Positions 3,001-48,330 of a stretch of 64,000 bases of DNA are shown in pieces. The position numbers and the translations under genes are program-made. Each line of letters opens with the position of its first letter. Position 1 is the first letter of the stretch. The DNA is from an uncultured bacterium (GTDB lineage Bacteria; Omnitrophota; Omnitrophia; Omnitrophales; Aquincolibacteriaceae): assembly GCA_964508905.1 (NCBI GenBank), contig CAZDVO010000002.1:46330-110329 (forward strand), written 5' to 3'. The notes below the pieces were generated by a model, which saw nothing but the letters and a program-made list of their open reading frames with translations, was not told the origin of the DNA and did no database searches.

Positions 3001-6000
3001 AAGGAGACAACGGCCGTCCATGTGGTGGCATAAAAATCCGCCACGTATTGGGTTCCGTTGATGTAAAGATTGGTTTCGGCATCCTTGGTCCCAGAAAGCA
3101 CAAGCTGCGTCGAGTTGATGAAAGCAGGCACAGGCGAAATGATCACGGGCGCTGCCGGCGTAAATTCATAAACGATCGTGTCGCTGAAGGTCGCGATATT
3201 TCCGGCCTTATCGCGAACCTGATATTGAACTTCTTTCGTGGCATACCCCGCCGTCAGCGTGATCGCGCGGGTCGCCGCAAAAGCCTCCCAATCCGTCCAG
3301 GTCGATCCACCGTCCACCGTAAAACGGACCCCATCCACCCCACTCAACGCGTCCGCCGCCGTCAGATTCAGCGTTACGTCCCTCGTACCGGTTGAAGCCG
3401 CGCCATTGTTGATCTTTACTGAGCCTGTCGGCACCGCCCGATCACGGATGGTGGCCACAATGGCCGCCGCGCTCGTTTTCCCTGCGCTCGTTTTCACGGT
3501 CACCGAGAATGTTTTTGATCCATCGGCTGACAGAGAAACGGTCGCCGTCCATGAAGTCGCGTTAAAATCCGCCGTGGTTTTAGTCCCATTGATATAGAGA
3601 TAGGTCTGAGCTTCCTTGGTTCCCGAGAGAACCAGCTGGGTCGCATTCGTATAAGCCGGAACGGTCGATGTCACGACCGGCGTCGCGGGAAGAAATTCAT
3701 AAACGATCGTATCTTTCAATGTGACGAAATTGCCCACCCGGTCGCGGATCTGAAACTGAACCTCTTTCGTCCCATACCCGGCCGCCAACGTGATCGCGCG
3801 GGTTGGGGCAAAAGCTTCCCAATTCGTCCACGTCTTCCCCCCATCCACCGAAAAACGCATGGCATCCACACCCGAGGTCGTATCGGCGGCCGTCAAATTC
3901 AGCGTCACAGCCGCCGTCCCGGTGGATGAGGCTCCGTTATTGATCTTGATCGAACCGGTCGGAGCCGTGGTGTCACGACGAAGAACAAGGTTCTGGGTCG
4001 CGCAGGCAACGCCAAGAATGCTCTTGGCCAGCAACGTAACCGTATTATTCCCTTCCGAAGAGAGTGTCACTGTCGCCGTCCAGGTCAACGAGGTATCCGC
4101 CGGAGCCACAAGCTGGCCATTCACGTAAACCGAACTATACGCGGCTTTGGTCCCAGAAATCGTCACGGTCTTCTGGCCAAACACCGTCGGCGTCGAAGGA
4201 TCCAGCACCGGGGCAGCCGGCGCCGTGGCCCCGGTAAGCGCCCGGGTAGCCCCTGAACGATAAACTTCGAAAGCGCTGCTCTGGAGGCGGGTCAGCGCCG
4301 GGACATCATCCAGGGTGATCGCGACCGAAGGAAGACTGATCCAAATGTCCGGGGCCCCACTCCACGTAAAATAAACACGCGTCCGCAAAGGTACGGACAT
4401 GATTTGCTCCTGAGCCAGGACCTTCGCTACGGCCGAACGCTGCGCCAATTCGTTGTACCGAGCATCCATCACCGCCATCATCCAACTTTGAGAGGCCCAG
4501 GTCGTCGAGGGGTTAGAATCCTTAAAATGAGGCACCGCCAGGAGGGCCGCGAAGGCCAGAACGCTCTGGGGGTCCATTCCCTCCAGGATCGTAACGTTGT
4601 TCTTGAAGTCCGTGCTCGTAAATCCCGTCACCGGCGGCGCTTTTTTCGCGTACGTAGTCAACTGGGAATCCGAGATCGTGGGTGCGATCACCTGCGTCGT
4701 CGCAAAAAGCATCTTGGCCAGGGCCTGATCACGCGCGCTCAGCCCCGCCAGCAACGCGGTCCTTTGCGATGAAGTATAAGTAGAAATTTTCCATTGAAAA
4801 TTTTCGCGCGCCTGGAACACGGCATCGTCATAGCGCGTGGACAAGGCGGGATTCGCCAGTAAAGCCGCAAGCTCCGCGGAAAATTCGGCGCAGAGCGCGG
4901 ACATGTCATTACTCACGATCGTGTCTTTATAAGTGCCCGTATTCCCAAGGCGGTCGCGGACCTGACAGACGACCTCATTGGTTCCGATCTTCAAAGGAAG
5001 GGTCAACGGTTTTGTCGCGGCGAAAGCTTCCCACTCCGTCCATGTATTTCCCCCATCCATCGAAAAGCGCATGGAATCAACACCCGCCCCCGCGTCGGTG
5101 ACGGCCACATTCAGGATCACGTTCGCCGAACTCGTCGATGAAGCACCATTATTGATCTTAACCGATCCGGTGGGCGCTTTGGTGTCGCGGATGACCCGGA
5201 TCGTTTGGGTAGCCGTTGAAACCCCCAGAGCGCTTTTGGCGAGAAGCGCAATGGAGTTAGAGCCTTCGGAACTCAGGGAAACATTCGCCGTCCAGGTCGT
5301 CGAGGCATCCGCGGCGGCAACCAGTTTTCCCTTCACATAAACCGCGCTGTAGGCTTCTTTAGTTCCGCTCAAGGTGATCGTTGATTGGTTGGTCACAAGC
5401 AAAACGGAAGGGTCTAGTTGCGGAAGCGCGGGGGCAGCCGCATCCGTCCCATTCAGGCGAAGATAGAAAGTCCCGCTGGCATAACTGGCTGTGGTATTTC
5501 CCGGCTCTACATAAAAATCAATCGCACGGATCCTGGAAAGATCCACGCTCGACTGGATCTGACTGAGATTCATCACCCAATAACGCTGCGTGGAACTCGC
5601 CACTTGAGTTAACTGAAAACCGGCGGTATTGCCCTCGACATCTTCAAAGCGGACGTTCACCGTATGGGCACCCCCGGTAAGTCCGACCGTTAGGTTGCCA
5701 AGCCCCGAGAGGTTGCCGGTCTCCTGACCCGCCGTGGAGTAATCATTAAAATCCATGGTGATCCCCGACTTCGTCCCCGCCGTTTTGACATTGTATTTGA
5801 CCGCGAACTTTCCGGACGAAAAGCTGATCGCCGTGGTACTGCTGGAACCATCCATCACATGCGGAAGAGGTGTCCCCGGCAAGGTTGAAACATTCGATGT
5901 CGTAAGGCCAGACGTGTAAGAGATCGCGACAAGAGGCGCCGCCACAGCCGCCGCAACGTAAGCTTTTTCGGGAAGCCTGGGATCCGTTGCCGCCGGGGAA

Positions 6001-6080
6001 TAAGCGACCTCCGCGCGAACGACCGGAACCGGCATCAAACAAAGCGATAAAGCTACGACCACGGAAACGGCTGATTTCAT
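1..6080 (-). CDS. Secreted giant surface protein, 3' end beyond window (>2026 aa): signal peptide, clan GH-A TIM-barrel glycosidase-like domain, beta-sandwich, then tandem Ig/Fn3-like repeats
   Basis: Start and signal peptide: ATG is the reverse complement of cat at 6078-6080, preceded by RBS GGAGG (rc of cctcc 6088-6092), translating MKSAVSVVVALSLCLMPVPVVRAEVAYSPAATDPRLPEK. Reading frame: I translated the minus strand by hand through 5400 and spot-checked at 2160-2460 and 1-120, all in frame with 6080 and with no stop codons. Absence from the ORF track: consistent with a missing stop codon beyond position 1. Domain evidence: the region around 2160-2460 gives KWYKTDFALMAQMGINTIRV ... GIKVVVRVDFPVGG ... 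NAYKHHPAVLMWSVGSLWDLNRYG, the clan GH-A beta-3/beta-4 pattern (compare LacZ RDRNHPSVIIWSLGNE). Repeat evidence: the plus-strand mini-ORFs containing PLLIDTDPAGATVSR-like strings (38-1059, 2728-5340) are antisense shadows of ~95-aa repeats, e.g. DTIVYDVIPTTPVITSPVP. Confidence 0.75.
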   Translation of the reverse strand, partial: MKSAVSVVVALSLCLMPVPVVRAEVAYSPAATDPRLPEKAYVAAAVAAPLVAISYTSGLTTSNVSTLPGTPLPHVMDGSSSTTAISFSSGKFAVKYNVKTAGTKSGITMDFNDYSTAGQETGNLSGLGNLTVGLTGGAHTVNVRFEDVEGNTAGFQLTQVASSTQRYWVMNLSQIQSSVDLSRIRAIDFYVEPGNTTASYASGTFYLRLNGTDAAAPALPQLDPSVLLVTNQSTITLSGTKEAYSAVYVKGKLVAAADASTTWTANVSLSSEGSNSIALLAKSALGVSTATQTIRVIRDTKAPTGSVKINNGASSTSSANVILNVAVTDAGAGVDSMRFSMDGGNTWTEWEAFAATKPLTLPLKIGTNEVVCQVRDRLGNTGTYKDTIVSNDMSALCAEFSAELAALLANPALSTRYDDAVFQARENFQWKISTYTSSQRTALLAGLSARDQALAKMLFATTQVIAPTISDSQLTTYAKKAPPVTGFTSTDFKNNVTILEGMDPQSVLAFAALLAVPHFKDSNPSTTWASQSWMMAVMDARYNELAQRSAVAKVLAQEQIMSVPLRTRVYFTWSGAPDIWISLPSVAITLDDVPALTRLQSSAFEVYRSGATRALTGATAPAAPVLDPSTPTVFGQKTVTISGTKAAYSSVYVNGQLVAPADTSLTWTATVTLSSEGNNTVTLLAKSILGVACATQNLVLRRDTTAPTGSIKINNGASSTGTAAVTLNLTAADTTSGVDAMRFSVDGGKTWTNWEAFAPTRAITLAAGYGTKEVQFQIRDRVGNFVTLKDTIVYEFLPATPVVTSTVPAYTNATQLVLSGTKEAQTYLYINGTKTTADFNATSWTATVSLSADGSKTFSVTVKTSAGKTSAAAIVATIRDRAVPTGSVKINNGAASTGTRDVTLNLTAADALSGVDGVRFTVDGGSTWTDWEAFAATRAITLTAGYATKEVQYQVRDKAGNIATFSDTIVYEFTPAAPVIISPVPAFINSTQLVLSGTKDAETNLYINGTQYVADFYATTWTAVVSLPSDGSKTFSITAKMATGKESPAATVQTIRDTVLPTGSIKINNGAAMADARVVTLNLTASDALSGVDKVRFSVDLGETWTDWEVFSATRSITLPGADGEQEVRYQVSDKAGNIATYIDTIVLNNPVPAEASIVRVLDGDRRLFVQERLEDGSLGTEGAYISQGVNWAPASQSPLDQLAEYVKWYKTDFALMAQMGINTIRVNQDFGTGADAIKILDELWRQGIKVVVRVDFPVGGTQADLSNVSAVVNAYKHHPAVLMWSVGSLWDLNRYGNKFSTIEDAAAFTEQAAQLIKSLDSFHPVTTEIGDPHTLGSHVLSAEAFPYLMKPYCTNNWYCTSVSTEDMVNTLVSSIDVWGITPSRGNTFQDALDQWQSITDKPAYIAQFGVGTTELAYVDEANKSQVNGEMWDEVYFELSAERTNGTLVGAFAYAWNNNTGGAGVGLVDIDRNPSLAYTALQSRFKDPVNGVQMNAHPVITVTSQGDSSVEIDGKVMFNRGGGGAGARGINVFVFDTSTGIRISDYRSFDTYAGDVWHTRLIDYLNNLANGTLVLFSVEDEGGLRNSGAALQTKALLSSAAWGSTEINNVVYQGGWAMAAIKGQGKLAEGVSAQQVPVSITLQPSLVLDINAGLREAVFPSTPVVTSPVPQFTNQTTFVLSGTKDAGTSILINGKLVVSLDNETTWTATVTLGAEGDNTLNVTSLNALGKSSATLPLSIKRDTVAPAGSVSINNGDATTGSTTVTLALTGSDATSGVDTMRFSVDGGATWTSWEAFAPTETVTLTAGYGTKTVQYQLKDKAANVATYSDTITYDVIPTTPVVTSTVPVYTNATTVVISGTKEANTSILINGVEKVALNSSTTWSVTVSLSEGTNTFSIKSRNSSSVESGSVSVSPVRDTVAPAGSVSINNGDAFTGSLSVNLALTGSDATAGLDAMSFSVDGGVNWSSWESFATTKSLTLTSGYGTKTVQYRIRDKAMNIATFSDTIVYDVIPTTPVITSPVPEFT
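1500..2600 (-). other. Clan GH-A (GH2/GH5/GH42-like) TIM-barrel domain inside the secreted protein; acid/base Glu apparently replaced (VGNE -> VGSL)
   Basis: Hand translation gives MAQMGINTIRV (beta-1 region), AAFTEQAAQLIKSLDSFHPVTTEIGDP, and HHPAVLMWSVGSLWDLN where GH-A enzymes carry NE(P). Family assignment is from motif memory only. Confidence 0.45.
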
Positions 6081-6202
6081 GTAAACCTCCCGATTAATTT
6101 TTTGTATTAAAAAAGTTTTAATGTCGAAAAGATAACAGCTTGTTGTGTTTTCGGCAAGGGGTAAGCGGACATTTTTAAAGCTGGGGAATACAGAACGTAA
6201 CC
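6081..6202 (-). promoter_or_regulatory. Intergenic leader/promoter region of the secreted-protein gene (downstream of nadE stop)
   Basis: AT-rich 120-bp spacer between the nadE stop (6203) and the ATG at 6080, with an RBS adjacent to the start. No specific promoter hexamers claimed. Confidence 0.3.
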
Positions 6203-7888
6203 CTATATATTATAACGATTTGTGATTGGCATGCGGCGGCCGAACCAGGCCTTTTCAGTGACACGAAGAATGGGCGGCGTCTGGCGGCGCTTGTATTCAT
6301 TATGGTCGACTTTCCGCATAACATCCTCCACTAATGGGGTCAGACACAATTTCCCTAAAATTGTGTCTGACCCCTTTTTGAGACGGCGGAAGATCTCATC
6401 ACACCCCAGATTCTTTTCGATATACAAACGAAGGATCGCATCCAGGATCTCGTACGGCGGGAGCGAATCCTGATCTTTCTGATTCGGACGAAGTTCCGCC
6501 GAAGGCGCTTTGATCAACGTGGCTTCCGGGATCACCACGCCGAGCGAATTCCGATAACGCGCGAGGCGGTAAACATCCGTCTTGTAAACATCGCCGATCA
6601 CGGCAAGGCCACCCGCCATATCCCCATAGAGCGTGCAATACCCCATCGCAAGCTCGGATTTATTCCCGGTCGTCAGCACCAGCCGGCCCTCGTCATTAGA
6701 GAGATACATCAGTTCGAGACCGCGCAATCTCGCCTGAAGATTTTCCATCGCCAAACTCGGCCCACGATCCACGGGCCATGCCCCGCGCAGCTCGCTGTTC
6801 AAGAATGTTCCGTACATCTTCGTGATAGGATGCACTTCAAATTCGATTCCAAGATGCTTCGCCAAAAGCTCCGCATCCTTCCAACTCCCCTCCGAAGAAT
6901 ACGGCCCGGGCATCGTAACGCCCTTCACCGCATCCTTCCCCAATGCATCGCCGGCAATCGTGGCCACCAAGGCGGAATCAATGCCCCCGCTCAATCCGAT
7001 CAGGGCTTTCTTGAACCCGTTCTTCCCGAAATAATCCCGGACGCCGAGGACAAGCGCACGATAAATTTCTTCAACCGTTTTCAACCGCGCAGGTTGAAAG
7101 GGTTTTCCACCGACAAGAAAGAGGCCTTCTTCGAACGCGGGAGCCTGGAAGGTCACACGGCCTTTCTCGTTCATCAGAAGACTTCGCCCGTCGAAGATCA
7201 GATCATCCTGCCCGCCCACTTGATTCACATACAGGATCGGAAAACCGTAGCGGCGGGTATGCCCGGCGAGAAGTTTTTCCCGAGCGGCCGCCACCCCGGC
7301 ATAATAAGGCGATGCGGAAAGATTGAGGACCAGGTCCGCTTTTTTCCGGGCGATCGCCGCGAGAGGCTTCACTTCGTATCGGTCATCCCAAATATCTTCG
7401 CAGATGGTCAGACCGATCTTGATCCCTCTGAAAGGAACGACCAGCGTCTCGGCGCCGGGCTCAAAAAAGATCTCTTCCAGGAAAACGTCGTAGGTGGGAA
7501 GCAACTGCTTGTGATAGACCGCGCGCACCTTACCGTTTTCAATCCACGCCGCGGCGTTATAGGAGCATGATGCCGGGTCCAGCTTTCGAGAAGAGGGCCC
7601 TGTCCCCTTGTCAATAAAACCCAGAACCGCGGCGATCTTTTTGCCACGCGTCGCCGCCGCGATACGTTTGAGCTGACGCAGGCCGTCGGCCACGAACTGT
7701 TTTTTATTCGCGAGATCCCACACAGGATAACCGCAAAGCGCCGCTTCGGGGAAAACGATCAGGTCCGCGCCCTGGGCTTCCGCGTCGGCGATCCAGCGGA
7801 GGATCTTCGTGGCGTTCGCCGCATAGTCCCCGACCGTCGGGTTCATCTGCGCGAGGGCGATCTTCAGAGGTGTCTTCAGGGGCTTCAT
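6203..7888 (-). CDS. nadE: Glutamine-dependent NAD(+) synthetase (C-N hydrolase domain plus NAD synthetase domain)
   Basis: 561 aa. N-terminal nitrilase-type motif LIVFPEAALCGYP. C-terminal PP-loop SGGIDSALVATIAGDALG. Length and architecture match bacterial NadE. Stop is TAG at 6203-6205. Confidence 0.9.
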   Translation of the reverse strand: MKPLKTPLKIALAQMNPTVGDYAANATKILRWIADAEAQGADLIVFPEAALCGYPVWDLANKKQFVADGLRQLKRIAAATRGKKIAAVLGFIDKGTGPSSRKLDPASCSYNAAAWIENGKVRAVYHKQLLPTYDVFLEEIFFEPGAETLVVPFRGIKIGLTICEDIWDDRYEVKPLAAIARKKADLVLNLSASPYYAGVAAAREKLLAGHTRRYGFPILYVNQVGGQDDLIFDGRSLLMNEKGRVTFQAPAFEEGLFLVGGKPFQPARLKTVEEIYRALVLGVRDYFGKNGFKKALIGLSGGIDSALVATIAGDALGKDAVKGVTMPGPYSSEGSWKDAELLAKHLGIEFEVHPITKMYGTFLNSELRGAWPVDRGPSLAMENLQARLRGLELMYLSNDEGRLVLTTGNKSELAMGYCTLYGDMAGGLAVIGDVYKTDVYRLARYRNSLGVVIPEATLIKAPSAELRPNQKDQDSLPPYEILDAILRLYIEKNLGCDEIFRRLKKGSDTILGKLCLTPLVEDVMRKVDHNEYKRRQTPPILRVTEKAWFGRRMPITNRYNI

Positions 7889-8023: not shown

Positions 8024-11000
8024 CTATGCGGAAGCGGCGACACGAGACTGGGTGGCCACAAAATTCGCGAGCTCGGCCATGAGAGACTCCAACCCGCCCA
8101 GCTTTTCCACGGACACGAAGTGATACCCCATCGACCAGATCGCGTCGTTGAGCAATTTATCAGCCGCCAACAGCGTGGACGCTGTTTGCTTGAGCGGATT
8201 CCGGGCCCCCACCACGCTCAAGAGATGCCGACGAGAACCGATCTTCCGAGTCACGACAGAGTCTTCACGATCCGTGATAAGAGCCACGGATTGCCCCAGC
8301 GGCGCCGCACTGTTATAGAAACTCGCAAAGGCTCCGACAAACTCGTTCTCATTGGCAAATGCACGAACTGCGAAATTCTGCGGCAAAGCACCCATCTGGC
8401 TAAGAGCCGCAAGTTCTTTCTCGAACGTAGCGACCTCAGAAGCTTCCGCGATCAATGCGAGCACCACCGCGGCCTTCGGGTTATATCGCGCAAAGGTTAC
8501 CAAAGGCAGCACGCTCGCCGCATCCGGAATCCCCTGCCGCTGGTCAACCACCATCCGTTCCGTTGAAGCTGTCGCGGATGAGCTCATGATCTTGTTAAAC
8601 ACCGGCCACTTCTGCGCAAAAGCGGAAGGAACCGTCGAAACCTGCTGAAAGTGACGGGTACCTGCAAAAAGCTCCGGGGCAATCTCGGAAGCATATGCCG
8701 GAGTGCTCGACAGGAGCGGCGAAACCGTATTCGCCGCCACCCGGATCGCCGTCCCGATCTTTGCCCCTAAGCTGCTCGCATCCACCGCAAGGGCCAACGG
8801 AGTATCAGTCATCTCATAAGTTCGCGCTTCGGAGCGAGATAGAACCTCATGGGCCCGCGCATCAGATTTCAAGGGAGTAACAACCGCTTCAGGCGCTATA
8901 GACTGAACAACACCCGTTGACGTGACGGCTTTCAGTCTGGCAATGGCCACGACAAGCGCTTCATGGGCAGGATTGGGGCGACGTTCCACGCCTGTATTTG
9001 CAGACCCCACAGAATAAAGCCTTCCCGTATCTCCAGGCCCACCCGTTTCAAATTGCTCTTCGGAAACACCGTAGACAAGCTCGGCAGGCATGGTCTTCAG
9101 GATTTCTCCCAAGGAAGCGACCATCGTGGGGTTATTGACCGATTGAAACATATCAACTAAGGCGAGAATAGCACCTTGTGCAGGATCTATAACTTCATAA
9201 GGTCTTGTATCCCCCGTGCGATACTTCAGCTCTTCAACGAGAACGGGAATGCCGCTAAGATCCTGTAGCTTAAAACGCGCCTGCGCAGCAGCAATGCGCA
9301 CATCCAGATATTTATGTTTCAATTCCTTGCCGAGTTCTCGCAAAGCGGCGAGGTCATTCAGCCGAGTAATAGCCGCCCAACGAATATGAGGATTTTCGTC
9401 GCCCAAGATATCGATCAATATTGGAATAGCCCGCGGATCGTTGAGCACCCCAAGCGTATTGATAGCCTCCACCCGGCGGTTATTCTTGCGTTCCTCAAAA
9501 ATCCCCCAAAGCCAAATACGGAAACTCAGAATCCCCCCAAGAACCGTTCCCAGGACAAACCCCGCGACCACGGATGTCATCGATCCCATTAAATATCCCA
9601 CCAGGCCACCCATAACGATACTCCCGAGAAATGAGATCATTGAACCGTGGTCACACCACTTGGGCTGAAGATCCGATATGGCTTTCTGGAATTGTTTTTC
9701 TTGCTCGGGCGTCAGGCGGGCTTGCCCTGAGTTTGCCGAACGGGATTCTGAGCGGGACTTTACCTGGGGTTCAAGAATGCTTAACGCTTTCAGAACAGCA
9801 TCCCGAACCAAGAGATCAGGATCCCCGGCAACCGCTTTTAACGCAGGGATCGCCTGAGATTCTTTGATCCCACCAAGAATCTTAGCCGCAGCCATTCGAC
9901 GATCGGCGACCTTCCCCGGAAGCAAAACCCCACCCTTTCGAGGTTGGAGATCCATGATCAAATGCTGAATCAACGCTTGTCTCAAAACACGCACCTCTTC
10001 CAGGGCTCTAGATCCGAGGATTGGTTCAACATCTTTATCCAACCTGCCGGACTGCCAAAGGATCTCTTGCAAGCCCCGCGCGGGATCTACGGGAATTGGC
10101 GCCGCATAATCATAAACGGTCGTTGCGATACCAGCCTGAGACAACGCCCCCCGAAACGCCAACGAGCCGCGAATCTGGAGCAATGGCGCATGCATAAAAA
10201 TGGCCGAACGACCTTGATATCCCGAAGCCAGTTCTCTTTTAAGAATATCGACAGAAAAAACGCCGTTGTCCGTCATTCCTTGGGACGCCTTCTCCACCCA
10301 TATCGCTTCAGCGGGTACTCCGGCTCGAACCAGAGCATCTTTCATCACTAAAGCCTCCGCACGAACGGATTCCCCCGTCTGTCCATTCGTCCCACGATCG
10401 GGATCTTCAGGAAGCGGTTTGATATGTTTGCCAAAGCGCCCGGATACGATAACCCTGGACATTTTGTGAGCAAAAAAGATCTTAGCCGCCTCCTGAGCCA
10501 CGGCTTCACTGTCGGGACTTCCGAAAATCACCAAAAGATCAGCTTCTCGAGGCAGTGCATCCCGCTTAGCCATCAAAGCGACGATCTGCTGCGCTTCTTT
10601 TTCTCGAATGGATTGAAGAATCGCGCCGGCGGATTCTTCAGCAGAACGGTTCGTGTTATCGATCTCAACGGCATCCGCGGCTTTCCTGAAAGGAGCCACG
10701 GGGCGGATACTATCGATACGGTCACGTTCCAAAAGATCCCGCTTCACCTGCTCGAGCGTGATCTGTTTTCCGCCCCCCTCAAAATCACGCATTCTCCGCT
10801 TCGCACGAACATCGGGATCCGCCGTCAGAAAAAACTTATACGGTGTATCAGGAAAAACATCCGCCCCCACATTCCGGCCTTCAATCACCATATTGTCGGC
10901 TTCCCCAAGCTCACGTCCGGTTTGAAAAACCCAACGGAGCACGGCAGAATGGCGTGAAACAAGTGCAACGGCATTACCCACCTCGGGACTCCGGATACTT

Positions 11001-14000
11001 TCCGTCAAAGGGACCCCATCACGAAAGACCACTGTTTTCCCTTCGGCATATTTCACATCGATCCGTGTGCGAGCCAGCATGCTCTCGATCCCCGCAGCAT
11101 CATCCAGATCCAGCTTTTCATTCAAGGCCTTCTCAGCCACAGCTCGATTCAAAACACCAAGCTCAATGTGCTTATAGCCAAGCGCTTGGGCAAGCTTACG
11201 CGCCACAGTTCCCTTCCCCGTCGCCGAAGCCCCATCCATGGCAATCACCGTGGTTTTAAGCGGGTTCAGCTTAAGATCCAACTCCCGCGACTCAGAGCGA
11301 CCGACCATTTGACTGGCCGCCCTGACCTGGAGTTCGATCTCATTCCCCTGCCTCATGACAGGAATGCCGAAGAAATCCTTCTCCACACCGTCGGGCAAAC
11401 CGTCCAGTTCCCTTTTCACATCAGCTGTGCGCATGTCGTTCCGCCATCCCTCATTCATCATAGCCCGCAGCACCAAGGCACCGGCATCACGAATGGCTGC
11501 TTTTCTTAGTTCAGGCGCCTCTGATCTTACAAGGTCCGTTCGGATAGCAATGTCTCCGCTCCCAGAAATTTGAGATAACTGGGCAAGAAACTTCATAAAC
11601 TTCACGTACTGACGATAACCCCTTCCATGTTCGATCAAATAATTACAAATCCAGACGGTCCCGAGAATGATATCCAGATCATCTCGAAGGCTTTTGCGTA
11701 ACTGAGCCTCCTCGGCTCCGAACAATTGGCTAATAGTAGCTTTCAAAACCTTTATTTGAGTATGGTCTAAAAGAGGCGCTTGAAGATGCGGACGGGCCGC
11801 CATTTCAAGCCGGTATTCGTCATAGCGCTCCGTCAGCCCCTTCAACCCTTTTGGAGCCAGCCATGTCGTCATGGTTTCCAATTGATGAAGAGGCAACTTG
11901 TTATAACGATCATCGAGCGATGCCGCATCGGCCACAACATGCAGGACCAAGTACGGCATGAGCGTTCCGGAAGAAAGGTACCCTTTGTATCCCTTCGGAA
12001 CCTCGAGAAATTTTTTGGCGCGCAATTCTCCAAGATAAGTAGGGCCGGCCTCCATATGTTTCAATACGATCGCGGCTATCATTTCCTTTTCCTCTGCGGC
12101 CATCGGCAGAGGTGCTAGAAATTTACGAGCAATATCAGAACCTCTTTTTTCATGCCCCGTTCCATTCAGATCCTCAGAATATCCCGTATCATGGAATCGA
12201 ATCGCCAAACGAAGCGCCTGCTGTTCCTCAAGCGATAATTTGTCAAAGAAATCCTTCAACGCTTTTAAGCTCTTCCGATACCGCGCTTTGGTTGCATCCT
12301 TTGTTCCTTCAGGCATCCGTCCAAGGAAATAAGCGAAGTCCCCACGGGTAAGCGCTCTAAAATAGTTCTCCACCTGCACCATGTGTTGGGCGCGCCCCTC
12401 ATCGTCCTTGAGAATTTTCTGGTAGGCCGGGATGTCTTCGATGGCAATGATCTGCGATCCCGGATCCGCCTGCGCGGGCATCAGGCGCGATTGAGCTGAG
12501 TTTGTCGAGCGAGATTCGGAGCGACCACGCCCATTCGGTTTCGACATATGCTGAAGACTGATAAGAGCCAAAAGAACTCCGACCCCAACGCAAGCGTATG
12601 TCGCTGTGGGATTAGCATCAAAAAAAGCATGCAGGTCTCTGATCCAACCAATCTCATTTGCACTCACATGAGCAAGCAATGGGAGGGGCATAAAAGAGGG
12701 ATATCTCTCATTCCAATCTGCTTCGTCGTAAGCATGGTCCCTATCGCCACCTCTATACGCCGGTCCAGATGACCTACCCACCTCTCGCTCCAAGCGATCC
12801 GCTTCTTCCCGCTCAGCGCGTTCCATCTCTTCCCTCGCTATTCTTTTTTCATATTCCGCAAAGTCCTTCAGCGCCACTTCCGAACGAGGATCGCCCATTT
12901 TTCTTAATGCTTCCGCCGCAGCTCTTCCGGCATACTTGTACAACTCGTCCATCAGAGCCGACACCGCCCGAAGGTCCCCGATCACTCCCAACTGAGCAGC
13001 AACAGCCTTATTAAAATTGCTACCAAACCTCCGAATTCCAAGAGCTTCAATCAGCATGGGAACGGCCACAGCTCCTCGGACTCCCATCGCTTTCACTAAA
13101 TCTATAGCCAACGCATCGTTACGAGTAGTCTTTATAGCTTCAAGCAAGGCCTCCAAACTCGCCTCATCTGTCATCTGACTAAGCAAATGAACGGCGAGAG
13201 AGCGATTGCCGAGTCCGCCATGCAAAACCTCAGACAGCACGGGAATTGCTCTGGGGTCCTTCAGCTCACCCAAAGCAATCGCCACGAAATAACGAAAATC
13301 CCATCGTTGATCTTTTAACGTAGCATCAAGCGCAGAGGCAAAATGTTCTTTGAGTTCCCTCAGAGATTTTTTTGCTAAAGATTTGCGATCGCGTCCATAA
13401 TTATTAAACCTACCATCCCACCACTTGGGCTGGAGATCACTCAACACCTTCCGGAATTGTTTTTCCTGCTCGAGCGTCAGGCGGGCTTGCCCTGAGTCTG
13501 TCGAACGGGACTCAGAACGCAAACTCTTCCTCGACTTGATTGCTTCCAAAGATTCAGCCGCTTGTTTCGAGATCTCCTGGCTTCGATAAGTCACAGCATC
13601 ATTCAACAATTGTTCCACCGCGGGGGAATCGAATTCGGCTAAAGCGCTAACAATCAAAGCCTTTGTTCCCGCGGAGATCGGTTCGCGAGCAAGACCCGTT
13701 TTGTAAGCGTCATCGTAAAAGGCTCCAATCAAGGCTCTGAATGATTTCAAACTGCCGGCTTTAGCATACGCGGCCAGTTGTTCCACCGCCCGAGCACAAA
13801 CAGAAGGATCTTCGTCCCTCATAAGAGCCCGCAAACTCCGCAGAGCCTCAGCACCCACTTCAAAACGAGTCGGCTGGGGTCGCCTTAAAGAATTTACGGC
13901 ATAAAGAAAACACGTGATCATGCCGGCGAGGGCAAAGATCAACACAGCTGTTTGATGATCCTTTATGAAGAGAGAGAGAGGCTCGTTCCCGGCAACAGCA

Positions 14001-16518
14001 AGAAGCGAAAGAGGAATGAAGGAATTATGGCTCTCCCATTCGGCTCTATCGTAAGCATAGTCCCTGTCGCCGCCTCGATACGCCCCGGGGAAGGACCTGA
14101 GCCCCCTCGCCGATTGACGACGAGCGCCGAGAACCACAGGAAGAACGAAAATACCCACAAACGCGCTAATACCTAGCACGCGACCACCATATACGGCGAA
14201 AAAATAGTGCATCTTACTGATTCTATACAATGCCTTTGCCGCAGCCTCGGAATCATAGCCGAAACCACGCCGAAATATTGCTCTAAGCCTGGGGATCGCG
14301 GATGAATCATTAATTTCACTACTTTCGCCACGATCCACAAGACATTCGAAAGCTCTGTAAAACATTGGCCACTCTTGGCTATAAAATGCTGATTTTAAAG
14401 CGATAGTTACGGAGCGATCAGGGATCTCACGAAGTGCCTCCTGAGCATAAAAAAAAGATTTCGACCCCGACAAGGCGTTAATCAATTCAGGCACAGCCGC
14501 AGGGTCCCTTACTGCCCCCAGGGCATTTTGGGCAGAATACCTTACCGAAACAGGCTCGCTCTCATCATTACAAATTCTCACCAACGCGGGAATCCGCGAA
14601 ATTTCATCTATTGCTTTTCCACGCAACGGGATCATCCCCATCACCGCCGCGAGCATTAACTTTGCCGCGATAACACTACGCCTTCTAGGATTGATTTCTT
14701 CCTTATCCGTTCGCCGCGCTTCAGCACGAGCCACAGAGGACGTCGATGCAGGCGTCGGCGAACCAAAAGTAGAGGTAGTTACAGACTTAGAAAGGGACGG
14801 ACGGAGTGAGGCCTTTTCAGAATGGATCAGGCCGGAGATAAGGCCGCGAATCTCGGAACGCCAGGCTCGGGTTTGATCCTGGCCCGTGACGACAATACGA
14901 TCGCTAATCGGATTCATACCCAGGAGCGGAACGGCCTGGGAGGTCGCAAAGTCCCGCGACCCCATCATGGCCTTGAGATAAATATCATGGTCGCGTTTCG
15001 AAACTTCATTGATGCGCGGGGTGATCTGGAGATAGGAACAATGCTTGGACACCGCAAGCTTCTTGAGGCCGTCGGTGTGGAAACCGCCTGTCACGATCAC
15101 GGCGCGATCCTTCTTTTCCAGGTTCATGCGTTTGAGAGCATTCGCAAACATCTTGTTTTCACGAGCTACAGCCACAGCATAAAATTGTATTGCCTGCTCG
15201 TAAATCGGCTTAACCTTCTCAACTTCCGAGGAGAGACTGCGTCCCACCGGGGAAGTTCCTGAGGCGCATAGCTCTTCGTACTCAGCGCGAGTTAATTCGA
15301 GTGAAAATAATCGGCGTAGCAGATAAAGCTCCCGCGACTTCGAAAGATATTCTTTTTCATCCGCGGTCCTAGCCAAAACCGTCAGGAGCTTCTCTTTCAA
15401 ACGAACCGTCTCCTCCTGCAGGCCCTTCCCCTCCATCTCCTGCATCAAAATGATGTATTGAGCATACCGCATCCAATTTGGCCACGGGGCCATGGAAAAG
15501 TCTTTGGAGAGTTTATTGAAAACAAGATCAAAGGCGCGGCGCATCATGGAATAACCATCCGTCGTCCGGCTGACAGTCTTCAGCAGGTCTGTTTCGGGGG
15601 CTTGCAGGAGGGTTTTGAAGGCATCGAGAATCTCTTTGGAAACCTTGCGCCGGCCAAGCTCTGATAAAAACGCATCGGCTTCGCGGCGGGCTTTTTCACG
15701 GTCGATCTTGGAGCCGATGGCCTGTAAACGGAAATAGCGTATCAGGAAAGGATATGAGTCCTGATAAAAGGCGTCTGAAAGGTCGGTCTTAAGATGCTTG
15801 CGGCTTCCTTCACCCAAAGCCTTGATCCAGCTTTCAAAGGAAACGGTCCCCACCCCCAACGCTTCCTCTTGTCGAACGAGATTCAGGAGGTCTTTATTCA
15901 GCTTCGATGAAAAACGCCGGTCGAGCGCGGCCCTCAACGAACCCAGGAATTTCTCCGCGGTCTTTTCTTTTTTCACAACGCTGATAAACGCATCACGATC
16001 CTTCTTATAGGCATCAAGGTCTTCAATCCCCCACCCTTCGGTTTTGTCCGTCGACTCGATCAAAAAGGACTCAGGCCCGGTAAGATAGCCTTCTTGCATA
16101 AGCTTGTCCGTGACCTTCTTATTGAAATCGGGGTGTTTCGGGAAAAGGCGAAAGAGCTCGGGCTGAAGCTTATTCCCCGCGCCTTCAAGGAGGAGCAACT
16201 TCACGGACGAGTTTTTTTCGATATAGCCAAGAAGCTTTTCGATATTCTTCTCGGCCTGATAATTCCCGTGCGCGGACTGGATATGAATGAATGTGGGGGC
16301 CAGAGGATCCCCCATCATGGTATCGGTCACCTGCCCGAGCTCCGTCGGGATTGCAAGGGAGGCGGCGTTGAGCGCGGACACCTCGGCACGTCCGGCCAAG
16401 GATTGCGGCTGGAGCGTGGACACACTGATCCCTTGGGCAGGAGCGCCCCAGCTGATCTGCGTCGAGACGAAACAAAAAATTGTCACAAGGCTGATCGCTT
16501 TAAGCGTTTTGCTGAAGG
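8024..16518 (-). CDS. Giant multidomain membrane protein (~2,830 aa): N-terminal module paralogous to the 10,119-aa neighbour, HEAT repeats, TM helices, HD-domain-like, cytidylate-kinase-like and DUF218/YdcF-like domains
   Basis: The ORF track gives 8024..16588 with a non-ATG start. The likely true start is the ATG at 16518, with RBS AAAGGAG 10 nt upstream (rc of 16519-16540), giving MRSFSKTLKAISLVTIFCFVSTQISWGAPAQG, a signal/anchor sequence. Domain motifs seen: VIAMDGASATGKGTVARKLAQALGYKHIELGVLNRAV (Cmk P-loop); LAIRFHDTGY...GHEKRGSDIARKFL...LKHMEAG...HVVADAASLDD (HD-like); LLVIFGSPDSEAV...SGRFG...GESVRAEALVMKDALVRAGVPAEAIWVEKASQGMTDNG (DUF218); multiple PRAIPxL HEAT-like units; hydrophobic helices. 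Confidence 0.85.
9650..9760 (-). repeat. Intragenic ~105-bp DNA repeat, copy A (encodes ...QARLTPEQEKQFQKAISDLQPKWCDH...)
   Basis: ccacttgggctgaagatccgatatggctttctggaattgtttttcttgctcgggcgtcaggcgggcttgccctgagtttgccgaacgggattctgagcgggact is ~85% identical to 13430-13535. A weaker third copy lies at 12481-12545. Confidence 0.7.
10050..10560 (-). other. DUF218 (YdcF/ElyC/SanA-like) domain
   Basis: LLVIFGSPDSEAVAQEAAKIFFAHKMSRVIVSGRFG...GESVRAEALVMKDALVRAGVPAEAIWVEKASQGMTDNGVFSVDILKR fits the DUF218 pattern (vvLGg..., iivSGG..., sEAevM..yL...GVP...I..E..S.nT.eNa). Confidence 0.5.
10640..11270 (-). other. Cytidylate kinase (Cmk)-like P-loop NMP kinase domain embedded in giant protein
   Basis: TTVIAMDGASATGKGTVARKLAQALGYKHIELGVLNRAVA...RIDVKYAEGKTVVFRDG...ALVSRHSAVLRWV...NMVIEGRNVGADVFPDTPYKFFLTADPDVRAKRR matches the Cmk consensus (IAIDGPAGSGKGTVAK...YLDSGAMYRA...). 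P-loop DNA at ~11190-11250. Confidence 0.6.
11800..12300 (-). other. HD-domain-like (metal-dependent phosphohydrolase) segment
   Basis: H...HD...H...D spacing: RFHDTGY, GHEKRGSDIARKF, LKHMEAG, HVVADAASLDD. The DNA for FHDTG is at ~12185-12200. Confidence 0.4.
13420..13535 (-). repeat. Intragenic ~105-bp DNA repeat, copy B (encodes SRSESRSTDSGQARLTLEQEKQFRKVLSDLQPKWWDG)
   Basis: Direct DNA-level similarity to 9650-9760, read off the sequence. A second repeat family lies at 12690-12790 and 14025-14110 (tcgtaagcatRgtccctRtcgccRcctcKatacgcc), encoding AYRGGDRD(H/Y)AYD.A.W followed by a TM helix. Confidence 0.7.
14900..16518 (-). other. Conserved N-terminal ~540-aa module shared with the 10,119-aa protein (possible TraB/GumN-like fold)
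   Basis: TFIHIQSAHGNYQAEKNIEKLLGYI...VKLLLLEGAGNKLQPELF...KVTDKLMQEGYLTGPESFLI and DRAVIVTGGFHTDGLKKLAVSKHCSYLQITPRI align with IILHVQDAHINEEAQRNIANILRYF...LGLVSLEGASGELNTDLF...VADYFLREGRLTGPEYLAV and LSAIVTGGFHTPGIEKYLQEKGLSYIVVAPRI of the larger protein. Confidence 0.6.
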
Positions 16519-16588
16519 ATCTCATATCCGTTTTTCTCCTTTGATCGTCCATGTTTTTAAAACTAAAACACCGGGATTGCCGTCCCAA

Positions 16589-16870: not shown

Positions 16871-19800
16871 TTATGCCGCGATGGCGATGGAACGGGCAGC
16901 CTCGATAGCGGCCTCCACGACTTGGAGCGCCGTTAACGTCCGGGCAATACCCGCGATCTCACGATCCGTGACCACCACGATCTCCAGACCCAAGGAACCA
17001 GCCAGCAATTCGCCATAAGTCTTGGCATCCAGTTGCGAGGCGCCACTGATCCTCGTCGCAGTCGCGCGCGAGAGGTTACGGCCAGCCTGCTTCAAGCCGG
17101 CATCAAAGGCTTCTTCGATCGACGCGATAACGACCGCGCACTTGGTCATATCAAAGCCATATTGCGTCAAGAACGCCTTGGCGGAGGCCTCGTCAGCTTC
17201 ATTCTTCACCGCGATCGAGAGGTAGATATTGTCAGTCGATTTAAGCGATTTCGCGAAGGACTCAAGGCCCGCCTGATTGAATCCGTCCTGGAAGACATAT
17301 TTCGGAGCCTCAGCGCCCACGATCACGTCGGCATCAAGGCCCAAAGCCGCTTGCATCTTGGGTTCCGCCGCAAAATTCGAGATCACCTGCGTGAATTCGT
17401 TCTCGATCCCAAGAGCCTTCACGTGCTCCACCGTACGAGCGAGATCAAAACGCATCGCCTGCGAGGACGCAATACCCGCAACCATTCTCTGCGCCACAGG
17501 GCTCAACGCCGGCTTTTGCTGCCCAGCCATCTCCGGTGCGGGAGTTCCGAGCTTCTTTAATTCGTCCTCAATAGCCGCTTGGCGCGCCGCTTCAGCAGTC
17601 ACTGCAGGCCGCAACTCCGAGCGTTTCGTCTCAGTCTTCGCGGGAGCTTCAGTCTCGGTAGCAACCGGCAAAGGCGTGTAATCCGAGAGACGCTCCAACT
17701 CCGCCAAAAGCGCGGAAGCCTTGGGATGAATGACAAGCATCTTCGCGTTGGCCTCACGGATAGCTTTGGTCAGAGTTTCCCCTTCCGCCGGGACTTGCGC
17801 CAATTCACGGCCGGCCGACGCGGGATTCTTAACCGCACGAGCAAGCATGTCTCCAAGCCCCTTGATCTCATTGCCACGGTTCACATGAGGGTAGCCGGAA
17901 ATATCTTCAGGCAACCCCGCGAGATAGATCGCGTCAAGCATCAACTGCTCATCCGCCATTTTTTCAACATTCGGTTCATAAACCCTCAGCGCGGCGACCT
18001 GGAAATTTTCCGTTGAAGAACCCGTCTGCCACCAGAACGCCTGCGCCGTCGCCTTCACACGGGCGGTCAGCATGGGGCTTGTGACCATATAGATCCTCGG
18101 ATTTTCAACCGACGCGGGGATCTTCTCTCGGAGGATCTCCGCGGAATTCCGAAGATTGGCCTCCGTGTTCCGCGCGCGAGCTTCTTTCGTGATCATGCCG
18201 GCTGGAACACCTTCCGCCGTTAAAATATAAGCCATAATGTCCGCCTCGGTCTGCCACAGGGCGACCACATCCGAGGTTTCATTAAGCCCGTAATGCTCCA
18301 TAGCCGCCTTCCTAAGCGGAAGATAACCACGCCCTCGGCCACCCGTCACCACGATCGGCAACTGGGTCTTAAGAGCTTTCCACGTCGCGGCAAATCCTGT
18401 AAAAGTCCGCAGATCGGGGTTACCAAGGACTAAAAATCCATCGGCGGGCTTCGTTTGGAGATCATCCCCCTTCGAAAGATCATCCACCAGCTGCTGCATC
18501 TTCGGCACCATCACAGAACGAACGGCCGCGATCTCACGCGACTCAGAACGCCGCGTTCCGATCGCGGAAAGAATCGTTTGGGGAGCATTATCCTGCAATT
18601 CCGACCAACCGAGCGGAAACGTCTGGATCAGAGAAAGGGTTTCTTCTCCGGGCTTTTGCGTCGGTTTGAGATCGGCTCGCATGAGCTCCACCGAATTCAC
18701 AGCAACGGTACCGAATTCCGTATCCCGATTGGCGCGAACCTCGTCCATGAGCACCTTAAATTTTTCGCCGGTCACCGAATGCTGGAGCCGAAACAGTTTC
18801 GCATGGATAATGTGGCCGGATGATTTATCTTCGGCGTGGGGATTATCCGTAAAAGCTTGGTGCAACCCGGAACGAAGGCCGCCAAGATTTGACGGTTCAT
18901 CGACATAGCCTTGCGCGGTCACCGTACCATCTTTGGCGATCGTCAACCCTTTGTAGGTAACGCGGAACGGCATTATCCTGCCCGTTACCCCGCGGATCAC
19001 ATCCTGAATTTCGGCAGATTGATACGGCGCCATATCGATCACGCCGTTATACGTTGTGACAAAGGCAAAGATCGTGCTGTGAAGCTCACCCGTCCGGACG
19101 ACATCGGCATCAGTCAACTGAGCCGTTTGAATGATTCGTTCTGTCATCTTCCACAGATTATTCTGAACCGCGCCCTGCGGCACACGCATCAAGACAGGAA
19201 CTGTCGTCCCGTATCGCTGAGCGCCCTTTTCATCAAAATAATTTTTATGCGCCATGATCGCCGCCTCACTGATCGAACCCTGTGCTTCCGTTTCGGTAAA
19301 CATCCGGTCGTAATACCCCCTCAGCACCTTGGGATCCAACTCTGCCACCGTTTCCGCCAACCGCATCTCCGAGCGGGCGTTAAGCTGCACGTCTTTCCCC
19401 GGCGTCCTTGATTCAGAACGAGGTTGAACCATTTTGGGTTCACTAGTCTCGCTTTTTTTCACGTTCCCCTCGCCTGTCGAACCAATTCCATGCAGAGGCA
19501 CCGATGATTCCTTACCCGGCGCAACTGATTCTGGCACAACACGCGCTATCAGCATCAAAATGCCCGCGACTCCCGAAGCAATCGCGAAACCGATCCAGCC
19601 TCCAATCGAAAACCCGATCCCGCCAATCGCGGCGATTCTCGTAATCATCCTGATATATTTAGCCGATTGTTTTGAGCCAATAACAAGCCCCGCGACGATC
19701 ACAAAACCCACAATCGCCGCCACAACACTCCATCCAAGCACATGCCCCACAGCAGTAACAGGCACGAGAACCAAGACAGGCAAAGCAATCGAACCCAGAA

Positions 19801-47230: not shown

Positions 47231-47620
47231 AGTCGATAAAGTTATTCCAAGTACTACAAATTCGCCTATCTGATCGGGTATAAAACTTAGTTTAAAGCCT
47301 TATAAACCTCAATAGAAATATACCCGATTACCCCATGAAGGTCAAGAAAACCTAAAAAATTTTTAATGACGTAACTTATTGTCATACTACAACTTGTATC
47401 GCGACAACAAAATTATTTGAATTTAAGCAAACTCATTAGAACAATTCATAGCAATAAAATCAAAAAAAATTACGTCTGTATTTGCATATAAAATTTTATC
47501 TGGTTAAGAAGTTTTGATGCGTTAATAAAAAGTTTTTTAAAATAAATGCCTTTTAACTATTGTTTTGATGCCCCTACATAGAGGTGACGATGAGAAGAAA
47601 TGAGATCAAAAAAAAAGAGC
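47231..47620. promoter_or_regulatory. Strongly AT-rich island immediately upstream of the giant gene (putative promoter / nucleoid-protein binding region)
   Basis: Composition drops from ~60% GC to roughly 25-30% GC over ~390 bp (e.g. aaaattatttgaatttaagcaaactcattagaacaattcatagcaataaaatcaaaaaaaattacg), with A- and T-tracts including a 9-A run at 47616-47624. No convincing ORF. Confidence 0.45.
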
Positions 47621-47867
47621 ACTCCCCTATTCGGAGAATCAACACCACGGGAGAAATATTTCATGACAGAAGGACAGGTGATGCCCATGAATATCTCGAG
47701 GATAAAAAAAAGAGAGCGGACGAATGATAAAGCCGGCGCCACACGAAACATCAAAATCCCGACGGAACGGATCAGACACCTACATCGAAAAGAGATATCA
47801 CGACCGCTAAAACCGCCGGGATATTTTGGACCTACCCTGACTTTTATTTATTTCTAAATGGTCGTCA

Positions 47868-47918
47868 GGACTGTCCCAATACATATCAATTTCCACGAAG
47901 TTGAAATTAGGGCTGTCC
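47868..47918. repeat. REP-like palindromic element (family GGACNRGYCCAAT - ~22-25 nt - ATTGGRCNRGYCC), copy 1
   Basis: ggactgtcccaatacatatcaatttccacgaagttgaaattagggctgtcc. It is homologous along its length to 58888-58956 (gtcccaattcttatcaatttcagagaatctgaaattggggcc) and has internal inverted repeats (caatttc / gaaatt). Confidence 0.55.
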
Positions 47919-48053
47919 AAACTACCGTTATGGAACAGAAATGAAAAGTTTGGACTGGCCCATTTAACCTTAGATTTTTCGAAAGAGAAATGGACCCGCA
48001 CTTGCCTCCGATTCATTTTCAGAACGGCGACAAGTGCTGGCCCAGTTTCCAAT

Positions 48054-48257: not shown

Positions 48258-48330
48258 TGGACCTGAGGAGAGTCGAACTCCTGACCTCTGCAATGCGAAT
48301 GCAGCGCTCTACCAGCTGAGCTACAGGCCC
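48258..48330 (-). tRNA. tRNA-Ala (anticodon CGC)
   Basis: rc = GGGCCTGTAGCTCAGCTGGTAGAGCGCTGCATTCGCATTGCAGAGGTCAGGAGTTCGACTCTCCTCAGGTCCA, 73 nt. Cloverleaf folds by hand: 7-bp acceptor with G3:U70 (Ala identity), D-arm GCTC/GAGC, anticodon stem CTGCA/TGCAG with loop TTCGCAT (anticodon CGC), T-arm AGGAG-TTCGACT-CTCCT, discriminator A. CCA not encoded. Confidence 0.9.

Follow-up and report, generated by a model that had tools for sequence, protein, structure and literature searches.

The stretch of DNA analyzed here (the window) comprises 64,000 nucleotides (nt) of contig CAZDVO010000002.1 from an uncultured Omnitrophota bacterium. Its minus strand carries three very long open reading frames (ORFs) in a row, of 10,119, 2,833 and at least 2,069 amino acids (aa), the last lying beyond nadE. 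The subject of this work is the ORF of 2,833 aa, which lies in a single stop-free frame at 8024..16588 (2,854 aa from a TTG) and for which the ATG at 16525 is the likely start codon. The product, with the sequence MRSFSKTLKAISLV..., is identical to NCBI protein P0001 (2,833 aa), found in a Candidatus Omnitrophota context. An earlier note on this DNA had proposed an ORF of ~2,830 aa; the length is right, but the end coordinate of 16518 given with it deviates by 7 nt and does not keep the frame. From N- to C-terminus the chain consists of a signal-like or anchor segment with a hydrolase-like head, spacers with HEAT repeats and transmembrane (TM) segments, an HD module, a cytidylate kinase (Cmk)-like domain with a YdcF-like DUF218 domain, more HEAT/TM sequence and a tail (Table 1). 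Six copies of a pentapeptide of the pattern R-[SA]-E-x-R, here called delimiters, split this chain into seven pieces: the head, two HEAT/TM pieces (residues 605-1002 and 1008-1334), the HD piece (1340-1742), a piece with the Cmk-like domain, DUF218 and HEAT repeats (1748-2257), a TM-hairpin/HEAT piece (2263-2563) and the tail.

The delimiter peptide is strongly enriched in proteins of this kind. In 69 family proteins RSE.R was observed 304 times against 4.7 expected from shuffles. In a set of 89 long proteins RSE[VALMIST]R was found 331 times against 3.0 expected, which is roughly 100-fold, and RAE[VALMIST]R 66 times against 4.2; the near variants RGE.R, RTE.R, RSD.R, RSE.K and RSQ.R showed no enrichment in that same set. 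No copy of the motif occurs in 14 ordinary window genes (5,088 aa), in the third giant ORF or in the ordinary genes of another Omnitrophota locus (L028). The spacing between sites is protein-sized (median 288 aa, interquartile range 133-525), and the sites coincide with domain boundaries. In the relative P0011 the motif brackets PGI (domain 3389-3896, sites 3331 and 3946) and TIM (domain 2474-2701, sites 2479/2483 and 2780), and in 8 of 9 copies of the HD module from motif-using giants it lies within -7 to +23 aa of the projected C-terminal end of the module, never inside it. The flanks are unconserved in sequence and linker-like: the upstream side is enriched in Pro, Ser and Thr and depleted of hydrophobic residues, position -1 holds a small residue, and the downstream side is acidic. 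At the codon level (the window and locus L081, which encodes P0011), all six Arg codons are used for the last Arg and both Glu codons for Glu, and position 4 can be V, A, L, M, S, I or T, so that selection acts on the peptide. This variation also ruled out a DNA- or RNA-level origin as the main explanation of the motif. The idea that the motif precedes a relic start codon was rejected as well, as Met is not enriched at +1 to +10.

With the whole protein as query, 68 other long proteins (1,705-4,950 aa) were found that align over residues 1 to ~600 only, with 21-64% identity, and at least 90 relatives possess the N-terminal head of ~570 aa. The ten closest also align over residues ~2550-2833 (40-73% identity), which defines a conserved tail that gave no Pfam or PDB sequence match. 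Wherever the source names an organism for the relatives, it is Candidatus Omnitrophota or Omnitrophica. The middle of the relatives consists of variable cargo, which includes PGI, TIM, aldolase, enolase, PFK, phosphoglucomutase, hexokinase and glycogen phosphorylase, and further glutamate dehydrogenase, PPDK/PEP synthase, UDP-glucose dehydrogenase, adenylate kinase, thiolase and response regulators. Judged from its sequence, the 2,833-aa protein is thus best classed as a small member of the already described Omnitrophota class of long multi-enzyme membrane proteins. The earlier note had called the domain combination unusual and had considered a moonlighting fusion; the protein is not an isolated fusion of that sort but belongs to a large family with a common head, HEAT/TM spacers and varied enzymes.

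The Cmk-like domain is a full-length match to Pfam PF02224 (residues 1761-1974, profile positions 1-210 of 211, E 6.5e-50, 170.2 bits, cut-off 26) and to the NCBIfam cmk equivalog TIGR00017 (171 bits, cut-off 135.55), in line with the P-loop domain of this type that had been proposed. Solved Cmks align with it end to end in a PDB sequence search (E about 1e-30). Its closest relatives among 5.8 billion proteins are ordinary stand-alone Cmks with 33-43% identity, and the best matches in species-representative genomes are Cmks of Verrucomicrobiia; no close orthologue was found in these two collections, the best match being 43% identical. The usual Cmk gene is a stand-alone gene of ~220 aa that often adjoins rpsA, unlike the domain embedded here in an ORF of 2,833 aa. 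Catalytic residues were compared in an alignment of the domain with 120 stand-alone relatives and E. coli Cmk, the numbering of which is used below. The P-loop K18, R41, R92, R131, R154/157/158, R181, D185 and R188 are kept. The P-loop pattern G-x-x-x-x-G-K-[GS]-T and the phosphate and lid residues match 120 of 120 relatives, with the exception of position 19 (G or S). The residues that contact the acceptor base are different: position 36, Ser or Thr in 120/120 relatives, is Leu1789; position 40, Tyr in 120/120, is Asn1793; position 110, Arg in 119/120, is Leu1863; and position 132, Asp in 119/120, is Asn1885. In canonical Cmk the cytosine base is hydrogen bonded by Arg110, Asp132 and Ser36, and Tyr40 stacks on it (PMC3603445). 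Of the substrate-binding arginines that the earlier note had wished to see checked, those of the phosphate and lid regions are therefore intact and the cytosine contact Arg110 is lost.

The same pocket is altered in two other giants with an embedded Cmk-like domain. In P0198, Arg110 is replaced by Gln, Asp132 by Gln and Tyr40 by Phe, and RSDVR precedes the domain at a place equivalent to delimiter 4. In P0220, Ser36 is replaced by Leu, Arg110 is lost and Asp132 is replaced by Ile, and an HD module directly follows the domain. The giant-embedded copies thus form a divergent subgroup in which the phosphoryl-transfer residues are kept and the acceptor pocket is rebuilt. An amide at position 132 could, as a speculation, suit the O4 and N3-H of uracil. 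Because all four cytosine contacts are replaced, a role of the domain as housekeeping CMP (cytidine monophosphate) kinase, or as the only one of the cell, is unlikely on the basis of the alignment. Omnitrophota locus L028 contains a canonical stand-alone cmk (4571..5287, plus strand, 238 aa) with all four cytosine-contact residues intact, in the gene order hisC-tyrA-cmk-plsC-rpsA, which can serve as a reference for the housekeeping gene of this phylum. A second cmk is expected in the source genome.

The HD module escaped direct detection: whole-protein Pfam (PF01966, no match at E <= 1), NCBIfam, a PDB sequence search and a word-indexed homologue search all failed to find it. An exhaustive HMMER search with residues 1350-1745 gave 37 representative homologues, nearly all inside other proteins of 2,000-7,800 aa and a few stand-alone at ~430 aa; most of the giants that bear the module also have the head. 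Three of ten scanned homologues reach the Pfam HD family (P0217, 26.7 bits; P0226, 22.4; P0222, 58.7; cut-off 22). The key residues of the module are H1381, H1445-D1446, H1458, H1490 and D1533. In an alignment of 28 copies all but H1381 (27/28) are present in 28/28, and in subset A2 all six metal-ligand residues are invariant (16/16). The profile of the module matched only HD domains in the PDB (E 3e-4 to 1e-2), apart from one chance coiled-coil, and a model supports the HD/PDEase helical fold. The module would be a phosphohydrolase, probably of the two-metal type. The identity of the HD-like domain in the earlier note thus stands and so does the conservation of its metal ligands in the pattern H...HD...(H...H)...D, but its position does not, since the module occupies residues 1350-1742, upstream of the Cmk-like domain and outside the segment 1750-2150 to which it had been assigned. 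A Cmk-like domain is present in 2 of about 25 other HD-module proteins versus 0 of 68 giants without the module (p about 0.07, our own estimate), which is suggestive only of a functional coupling of the two modules.

The DUF218 domain scores marginally above the gathering score of its Pfam family (Table 1). Its closest solved relative is E. coli YdcF (3ca8, E 0.0045), and DUF218 also occurs in the relatives P0003-5, P0015 and P0192 and in the neighboring 10,119-aa ORF, which bears out its earlier assignment.

HEAT repeats and hydrophobic segments, likewise called correctly before, fill the spacers. HEAT_2 (PF13646) matches six stretches with E 3.3e-35 and 120.7 bits, HEAT_PBS (PF03130) is also strong, and HEAT exceeds the gathering score separately in all five inter-enzyme segments (645-690, 954-1001, 1066-1146, 2210-2251 and 2349-2392). 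Hydropathy indicates about six to seven hydrophobic segments: 10-28, 618-636 (weak), 783-801, 859-877, 1306-1324 and a hairpin at 2296-2337. By the positive-inside rule, a cytoplasmic location of the HD/Cmk/DUF218 block is at least as good a fit as a location in the periplasm. Two further sequence elements recur in the spacers. A repeat of ~34 aa, AYRGGDRD[YH]AYD.A.W....SF[IM]PL.LLA, is encoded at 13982..14083 and 12659..12760 (minus strand), in both cases immediately ahead of a strong TM helix, and had no homologue (E <= 1e-5) among the 68 relatives of the first search round. A 22-aa element, LT[LP]EQEKQF[RQ]K..SDLQPKW[WC]D, is encoded at 13412..13480 and 9647..9715 (minus strand), 8 residues after two of the delimiters and preceded by an S-[TA]-[DN]-S-G-Q-A-R linker. 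It also follows delimiters in P0002, P0003, P0005 and P0010 and seems to mark the start of a recurrent HEAT/TM spacer module.

The head shows no Pfam superfamily member at threshold (PF04187 reaches only E 0.13). From similarity to solved members it is modeled as a TIKI/TraB/EreA/ChaN fold with a helical insertion of ~300 aa. In an alignment of 21 heads H86, E114-G115, G166, Y449, R455, G480-G481-x-H483 and P503 are invariant, and H86, E114 and G480-G481-x-H483 would fit the His/Glu/GxxH signature of this superfamily. A hydrolase role of the head is plausible. TIKI and RRSP are proteases, and the head is possibly the protease that acts on the delimiter sites.

Sequences that resemble N-termini occur inside the giants, after a minority of the delimiter sites. 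A hydrophobic stretch follows 8.6% of sites; the corresponding figures are 3.0% for random positions and 2.5% for the upstream side of the sites. AXA-type Sec signals follow the motif in P0002 (627 and 897), P0005 (3394) and P0038 (676), and a lipobox (...LLSGC) follows it in P0047 (603). Internal consensus Tat signals were found in P0009 (1682, NRRSFLKF), P0035 (592, DRRAFLGA) and P0043 (3060, SRRSFLKL); of the eight Tat-like patterns away from true N-termini, four lie within 45 aa after the motif, including three of the three consensus signals, and such windows make up 8.9% of residues. A further internal signal-like site, at P0031 939, lies within about 45 residues after R-S-E-x-R. In the 2,833-aa protein itself, RAEAR (600) is followed by RTDKEEINPRRRS (RRR) and a hydrophobic stretch (residues 613-636). 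Six basic residues lie upstream of TM segment 618-636. By the positive-inside rule this basic cluster contradicts a stop-transfer helix behind an exported head and fits the signal-anchor of a separate chain.

The surroundings of the gene are those of a bacterial chromosome. The other window genes are ordinary (lepA, lepB, rpe, thiolase, acyl-CoA synthetase and a tRNA-Ala at 48258..48330), and nadE begins 135 nt downstream of the stop codon of the 2,833-aa ORF. The 10,119-aa ORF has no Pfam match over its first ~9,300 residues, and near the C-terminus it has only a weak 2H-phosphoesterase/AKAP7-like match at ~9349-9520 and DUF218 at ~9618-9737. It contains six R-[SA]-E-x-R sites, four of them within the last 850 residues (9271, 9286, 9561 and 9870). 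The third long ORF looks like an adhesin from its domains and appears to be of a different kind from the head-bearing giants; neither the head domain nor the delimiter was found in it (window 3..6209). Tandem head-bearing giants also exist outside the window, because in L081 a second long ORF (5,636 aa; 13520..16193, plus strand) directly follows P0011, with the same head at its start and RSEVR at residue 674. The GC minimum of the window, 0.466 versus ~0.53 overall, lies at 46001..48000, around the start of the 10,119-aa ORF and the gap of ~1 kb before tRNA-Ala, and may be a promoter or regulatory region of the giant-gene array.

Table 1. Features of the 2,833-aa ORF and its long neighbors. 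Residues are numbered from the ATG at 16525; positions refer to the window.
Feature	Residues	Position	Strand	Basis or remark
Whole ORF	2,833 aa + stop	8024..16525	-	Translation
Signal-peptide-like or anchor segment, MRSFSKTLKAISLVTIFCFVSTQISWGA	1-28	16442..16525	-	Hydropathy peak 10-28, three basic residues upstream
Conserved head	~60-590	14756..16348	-	Predicted TIKI/TraB/erythromycin-esterase/ChaN-like core, ~300-aa helical insert
RSEIR	556-560	14846..14860	-	Motif match in predicted head helix; relatives have W-x-R-x-V-R-E there
Delimiter 1, RAEAR	600-604	14714..14728	-	End of head; RSE[VA]R or RAEIR at this point in close relatives
Spacer module 2	605-1000	13526..14713	-	Weak TM 618-636, HEAT 645-690, TM 783-801, AYRGGDRDYAYD element 815-826, TM 859-877, HEAT 954-1001
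Delimiter 2, RSESR	1003-1007	13505..13519	-
Spacer module 3	1008-1334	12524..13504	-	LTLEQEKQFRKVLSDLQPKWWD element, HEAT 1066-1146, charged helix, second AYRGGDRDHAYD element 1256-1267, TM 1306-1324
Delimiter 3, RSESR	1335-1339	12509..12523	-
HD-fold module, ~200-aa C-terminal extension	1350-1742	11300..12478	-	HMMER homologues, alignment, profile, model
Delimiter 4, RSESR	1743-1747	11285..11299	-	Conserved C-terminal boundary of HD module; 12 residues before Cmk-like domain
Cytidylate-kinase-derived P-loop domain	1759-1974	10604..11251	-	Pfam, NCBIfam, solved structures, residue alignment
DUF218 (YdcF-like) domain	1997-2127	10145..10537	-	Pfam PF02698, 29.8 bits, cut-off 27.6 (marginal)
HEAT block closing the Cmk/DUF218 module	2179-2254	9764..9991	-	HEAT profiles
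Delimiter 5, RSESR	2258-2262	9740..9754	-
Spacer module 6	2263-2563	8837..9739	-	LTPEQEKQFQKAISDLQPKWCD element, hydrophobic hairpin 2296-2337, HEAT 2349-2392
Delimiter 6, RSEAR	2564-2568	8822..8836	-
Conserved tail (~270 aa)	2569-2833	8027..8821	-	Extreme C-terminus of P0002-P0009, P0011 and P0017, 40-73% identical
10,119-aa ORF		16871..47230	-	Upstream neighbor; same N-terminal head as 2,833-aa protein, 24% identity over 500 aa
Third long ORF (at least 2,069 aa)		3..6209	-	Runs off window start; signal peptide; ILEI, CHB_HEX_C, HYR and glucodextranase-B-like domains
nadE, glutamine-dependent NAD synthetase		6203..7888	-	CN_hydrolase + NAD_synthase; between two giant ORFs, same strand

In view of the above, we consider it rather likely that the ORF encodes a mid-sized Omnitrophota multi-enzyme membrane protein that is a polyprotein-like precursor and in which the Cmk-like piece is not a housekeeping CMP kinase. 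In the proposed scheme an endopeptidase, for which the head is one candidate, would recognize the exposed pentapeptide in the Pro/Ser/Thr-rich linkers and cut the precursor into about seven pieces that act separately. Some pieces could enter or traverse the membrane independently, and module 2 would do so with the RRR and hydrophobic signal-anchor at its start. The HEAT/TM pieces would be membrane scaffolds, and at the cytoplasmic face the HD, Cmk-like and YdcF-like pieces would act, with altered specificity, as enzymes on nucleotides or phosphoesters. The Cmk-like piece, with the ATP site and phosphoryl-transfer machinery kept, may phosphorylate, or merely bind, a ligand other than CMP. That the delimiter is an endoproteolytic processing site is a serious proposal to which we give slightly less than even weight. 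Its extension to the family is put forward more tentatively: the long and giant ORFs of many Omnitrophota could be true polyproteins, operon-sized and cut at R-[S/A]-E-x-R possibly by the head, which would release dozens of enzymes, HEAT/TM scaffolds and exported proteins with their own Sec, Tat or lipoprotein signals, and the HD and Cmk-like/DUF218 pieces would be free-standing paralogues with new substrate specificity.

Several observations weigh against this proposal. No motif is present in about 35 of the 89 long proteins, which have the head (a few are headless fragments); motif use is lineage-specific, and because of these proteins the link between head and motif is not a strict one and the protease does not have to be the head. 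The TIKI/Ere/ChaN superfamily also holds esterases and a heme-binding protein. If the head is exported by the signal peptide, it would miss sites in the cytoplasm. The motif could instead be a docking site, a modification site or a structural linker element, and the internal signal-like sequences, which follow a minority of sites, could be fossils of gene fusion. One motif match, RSEIR at 556, lies inside a folded helix of the head; it is probably fortuitous and not a true delimiter. The topology, judged from hydropathy and charge, is ambiguous, and the Cmk-like domain might have weak CMP turnover or be a pseudoenzyme. There is also a codon bias for which protein-level selection alone gives not obviously an explanation. 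In the Arg-Ser pairs of the motif from two genomes (window 8822..14728 and 17609..45070; L081 531-13193; the sites may be non-independent) the first Arg is CGY in 29/30 and Ser is TCN in 30/30, versus 47/76 (62%) and 50/76 (66%) in the other Arg-Ser pairs of the same genes. The TCN-only Ser can follow from Ser/Ala interchange under selection. Taken together, the bias at Arg1 and Ser may point to a further constraint (tRNA, codon pair or RNA) or to a common origin of the sites.

The best-surviving alternative, which we regard as possible but rather unlikely, is an unprocessed giant scaffold, a membrane-tethered metabolon in which the HEAT/TM segments keep the domains (HD, Cmk-like and DUF218) close to the membrane and the motif is not cleaved. 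HEAT repeats are classic protein-protein scaffolds and are present in every spacer, and the many head-bearing relatives that lack the motif would pose no difficulty for such an arrangement. In the two preprints on such proteins (bioRxiv 10.1101/2023.11.21.568195; bioRxiv 10.64898/2026.06.07.730766) they are treated as single membrane-anchored chains, peptides of a 39,678-aa relative were detected and fragments are not reported there. However, a strict 5-mer with unconserved, disordered-type flanks at hundreds of boundaries is typical of a recognition site, the mid-chain Tat signals and the lipobox right after the motif have no obvious role without a free N-terminus, and the charge distribution around TM 618-636 violates the positive-inside rule for a stop-transfer helix. 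Processing is preferred over an intact scaffold because the internal signals follow the motif. In the 2026 preprint, internal signal-peptide calls were deliberately discarded as chunking artifacts (bioRxiv 10.64898/2026.06.07.730766).

It is improbable that the domain is an ordinary CMP kinase, possibly the only one of the genome, fused with an HD nucleotidase and serving nucleotide sensing or processing at the envelope, outside the cytoplasm. The score above the equivalog cut-off and the intact P-loop and phosphate and lid arginines would agree with such a kinase, the N-terminal signal-like peptide and the TM segments with an envelope protein, and the 64-kb window contains no other cmk. Yet the four cytosine contacts are replaced, and the substitution Arg110Ala alone leaves Yersinia Cmk without detectable activity (PMC3603445). 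R110 and D132 are lost in P0198 and P0220 too, a close orthologue is lacking at a best identity of 43%, and a canonical cmk adjoining plsC-rpsA can be present in Omnitrophota, as L028 illustrates. ATP-dependent kinase chemistry outside the cytoplasm is implausible on general grounds, and the distribution of charges is compatible with a location in the cytoplasm. A chimeric or mis-assembled ORF, or a fusion of neighboring genes by sequencing errors, is very improbable: the contig is metagenome-assembled and the exact protein has one database member, but 8.5 kb run without a stop in sequence of ~53% GC, the same organization and delimiter recur in about 90 proteins from NCBI, JGI, ENA and Logan assemblies, and the boundaries hold a conserved in-frame peptide and not stop/start remnants.

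The preferred reading, a precursor divided by delimiters, bears on the question of one chain versus many products for the record-size Omnitrophota ORFs, for which the motif supplies testable candidate cut sites. The motif also offers a rule for dissecting giants in structure prediction and annotation. If cleavage is true, it would represent polyprotein expression on a large scale in a free-living or epibiotic bacterium, and counts of gene content would change, as enzymes that seem to be missing may hide in giants and embedded copies may be neofunctionalized. In metabolic reconstructions the embedded domain should not count as the CMP kinase of the organism.

The giants of Omnitrophota have been described as Archaeovorins (West-Roberts et al., bioRxiv 10.1101/2023.11.21.568195) and, as a class of long proteins, as multi-enzyme metabolic clusters (bioRxiv 10.64898/2026.06.07.730766). 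The protein shares with them the Omnitrophota origin, the many TM helices, HEAT as the commonest domain and housekeeping enzymes in one ORF. The Archaeovorins of the 2023 set exceed 30,000 aa, so that the present protein is 10-50 times shorter, and the cargo described there consists of glycosyltransferase, methyltransferase, NUDIX and glycolysis domains, unlike the HD, Cmk-like and DUF218 domains found here. The N-terminal regions of the 2023 proteins are generally described as without identifiable domains except C39/S8 peptidases (10.1101/2023.11.21.568195), unlike the head of predicted TIKI/TraB/Ere/ChaN fold. Length and domains both fall outside the strict definition, and the protein is therefore not an Archaeovorin in that sense but a small relative within the broad class. 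Post-translational cleavage of the Omnitrophota giants has already been suspected in these preprints, with the cleavage points given as unknown (bioRxiv 10.1101/2023.11.21.568195), and the cleavage and polyprotein passages available from the two preprints hold no mention of the R-[SA]-E-x-R delimiter. A literature search found no description of this delimiter either, and as far as the searchable literature shows, the delimiter motif, the head fold, the internal signal peptides and the remodeled Cmk pocket are new.

At the level of single domains, the Cmk-like domain resembles bacterial Cmk (E. coli, 1KDO) in the full-length match to the nucleoside monophosphate (NMP) kinase fold, the P-loop, Arg41, Arg131, the lid arginines, Arg181, Asp185 and Arg188. 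In the known fusions PanC-Cmk, AroA-Cmk and Cmk-Der the partners differ from the HD and DUF218 domains present here. The Omnitrophota head differs from the other members of the TIKI/TraB/PrgY/erythromycin esterase/ChaN superfamily by its predicted helical insertion of ~300 aa. MARTX toxins, to which a fold hit on RRSP pointed, are multifunctional autoprocessing proteins, but the protein described here has no RTX repeats or cysteine protease domain, the motif of its putative processing is different, and its cargo consists of housekeeping-type enzymes with HEAT/TM spacers where that of MARTX consists of toxins. The polyproteins of picornaviruses and flaviviruses are similar in that one ORF encodes protein-sized modules with a short conserved peptide in flexible linkers. 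The differences are that the present gene lies on a cellular chromosome with nadE, lepA, lepB and rpe as flanking genes, that no viral-type protease is recognizable and that cleavage is here a proposal. In flavivirus polyproteins, internal signal sequences direct the membrane topology of the single products, and the internal signals in the Omnitrophota giants resemble these.

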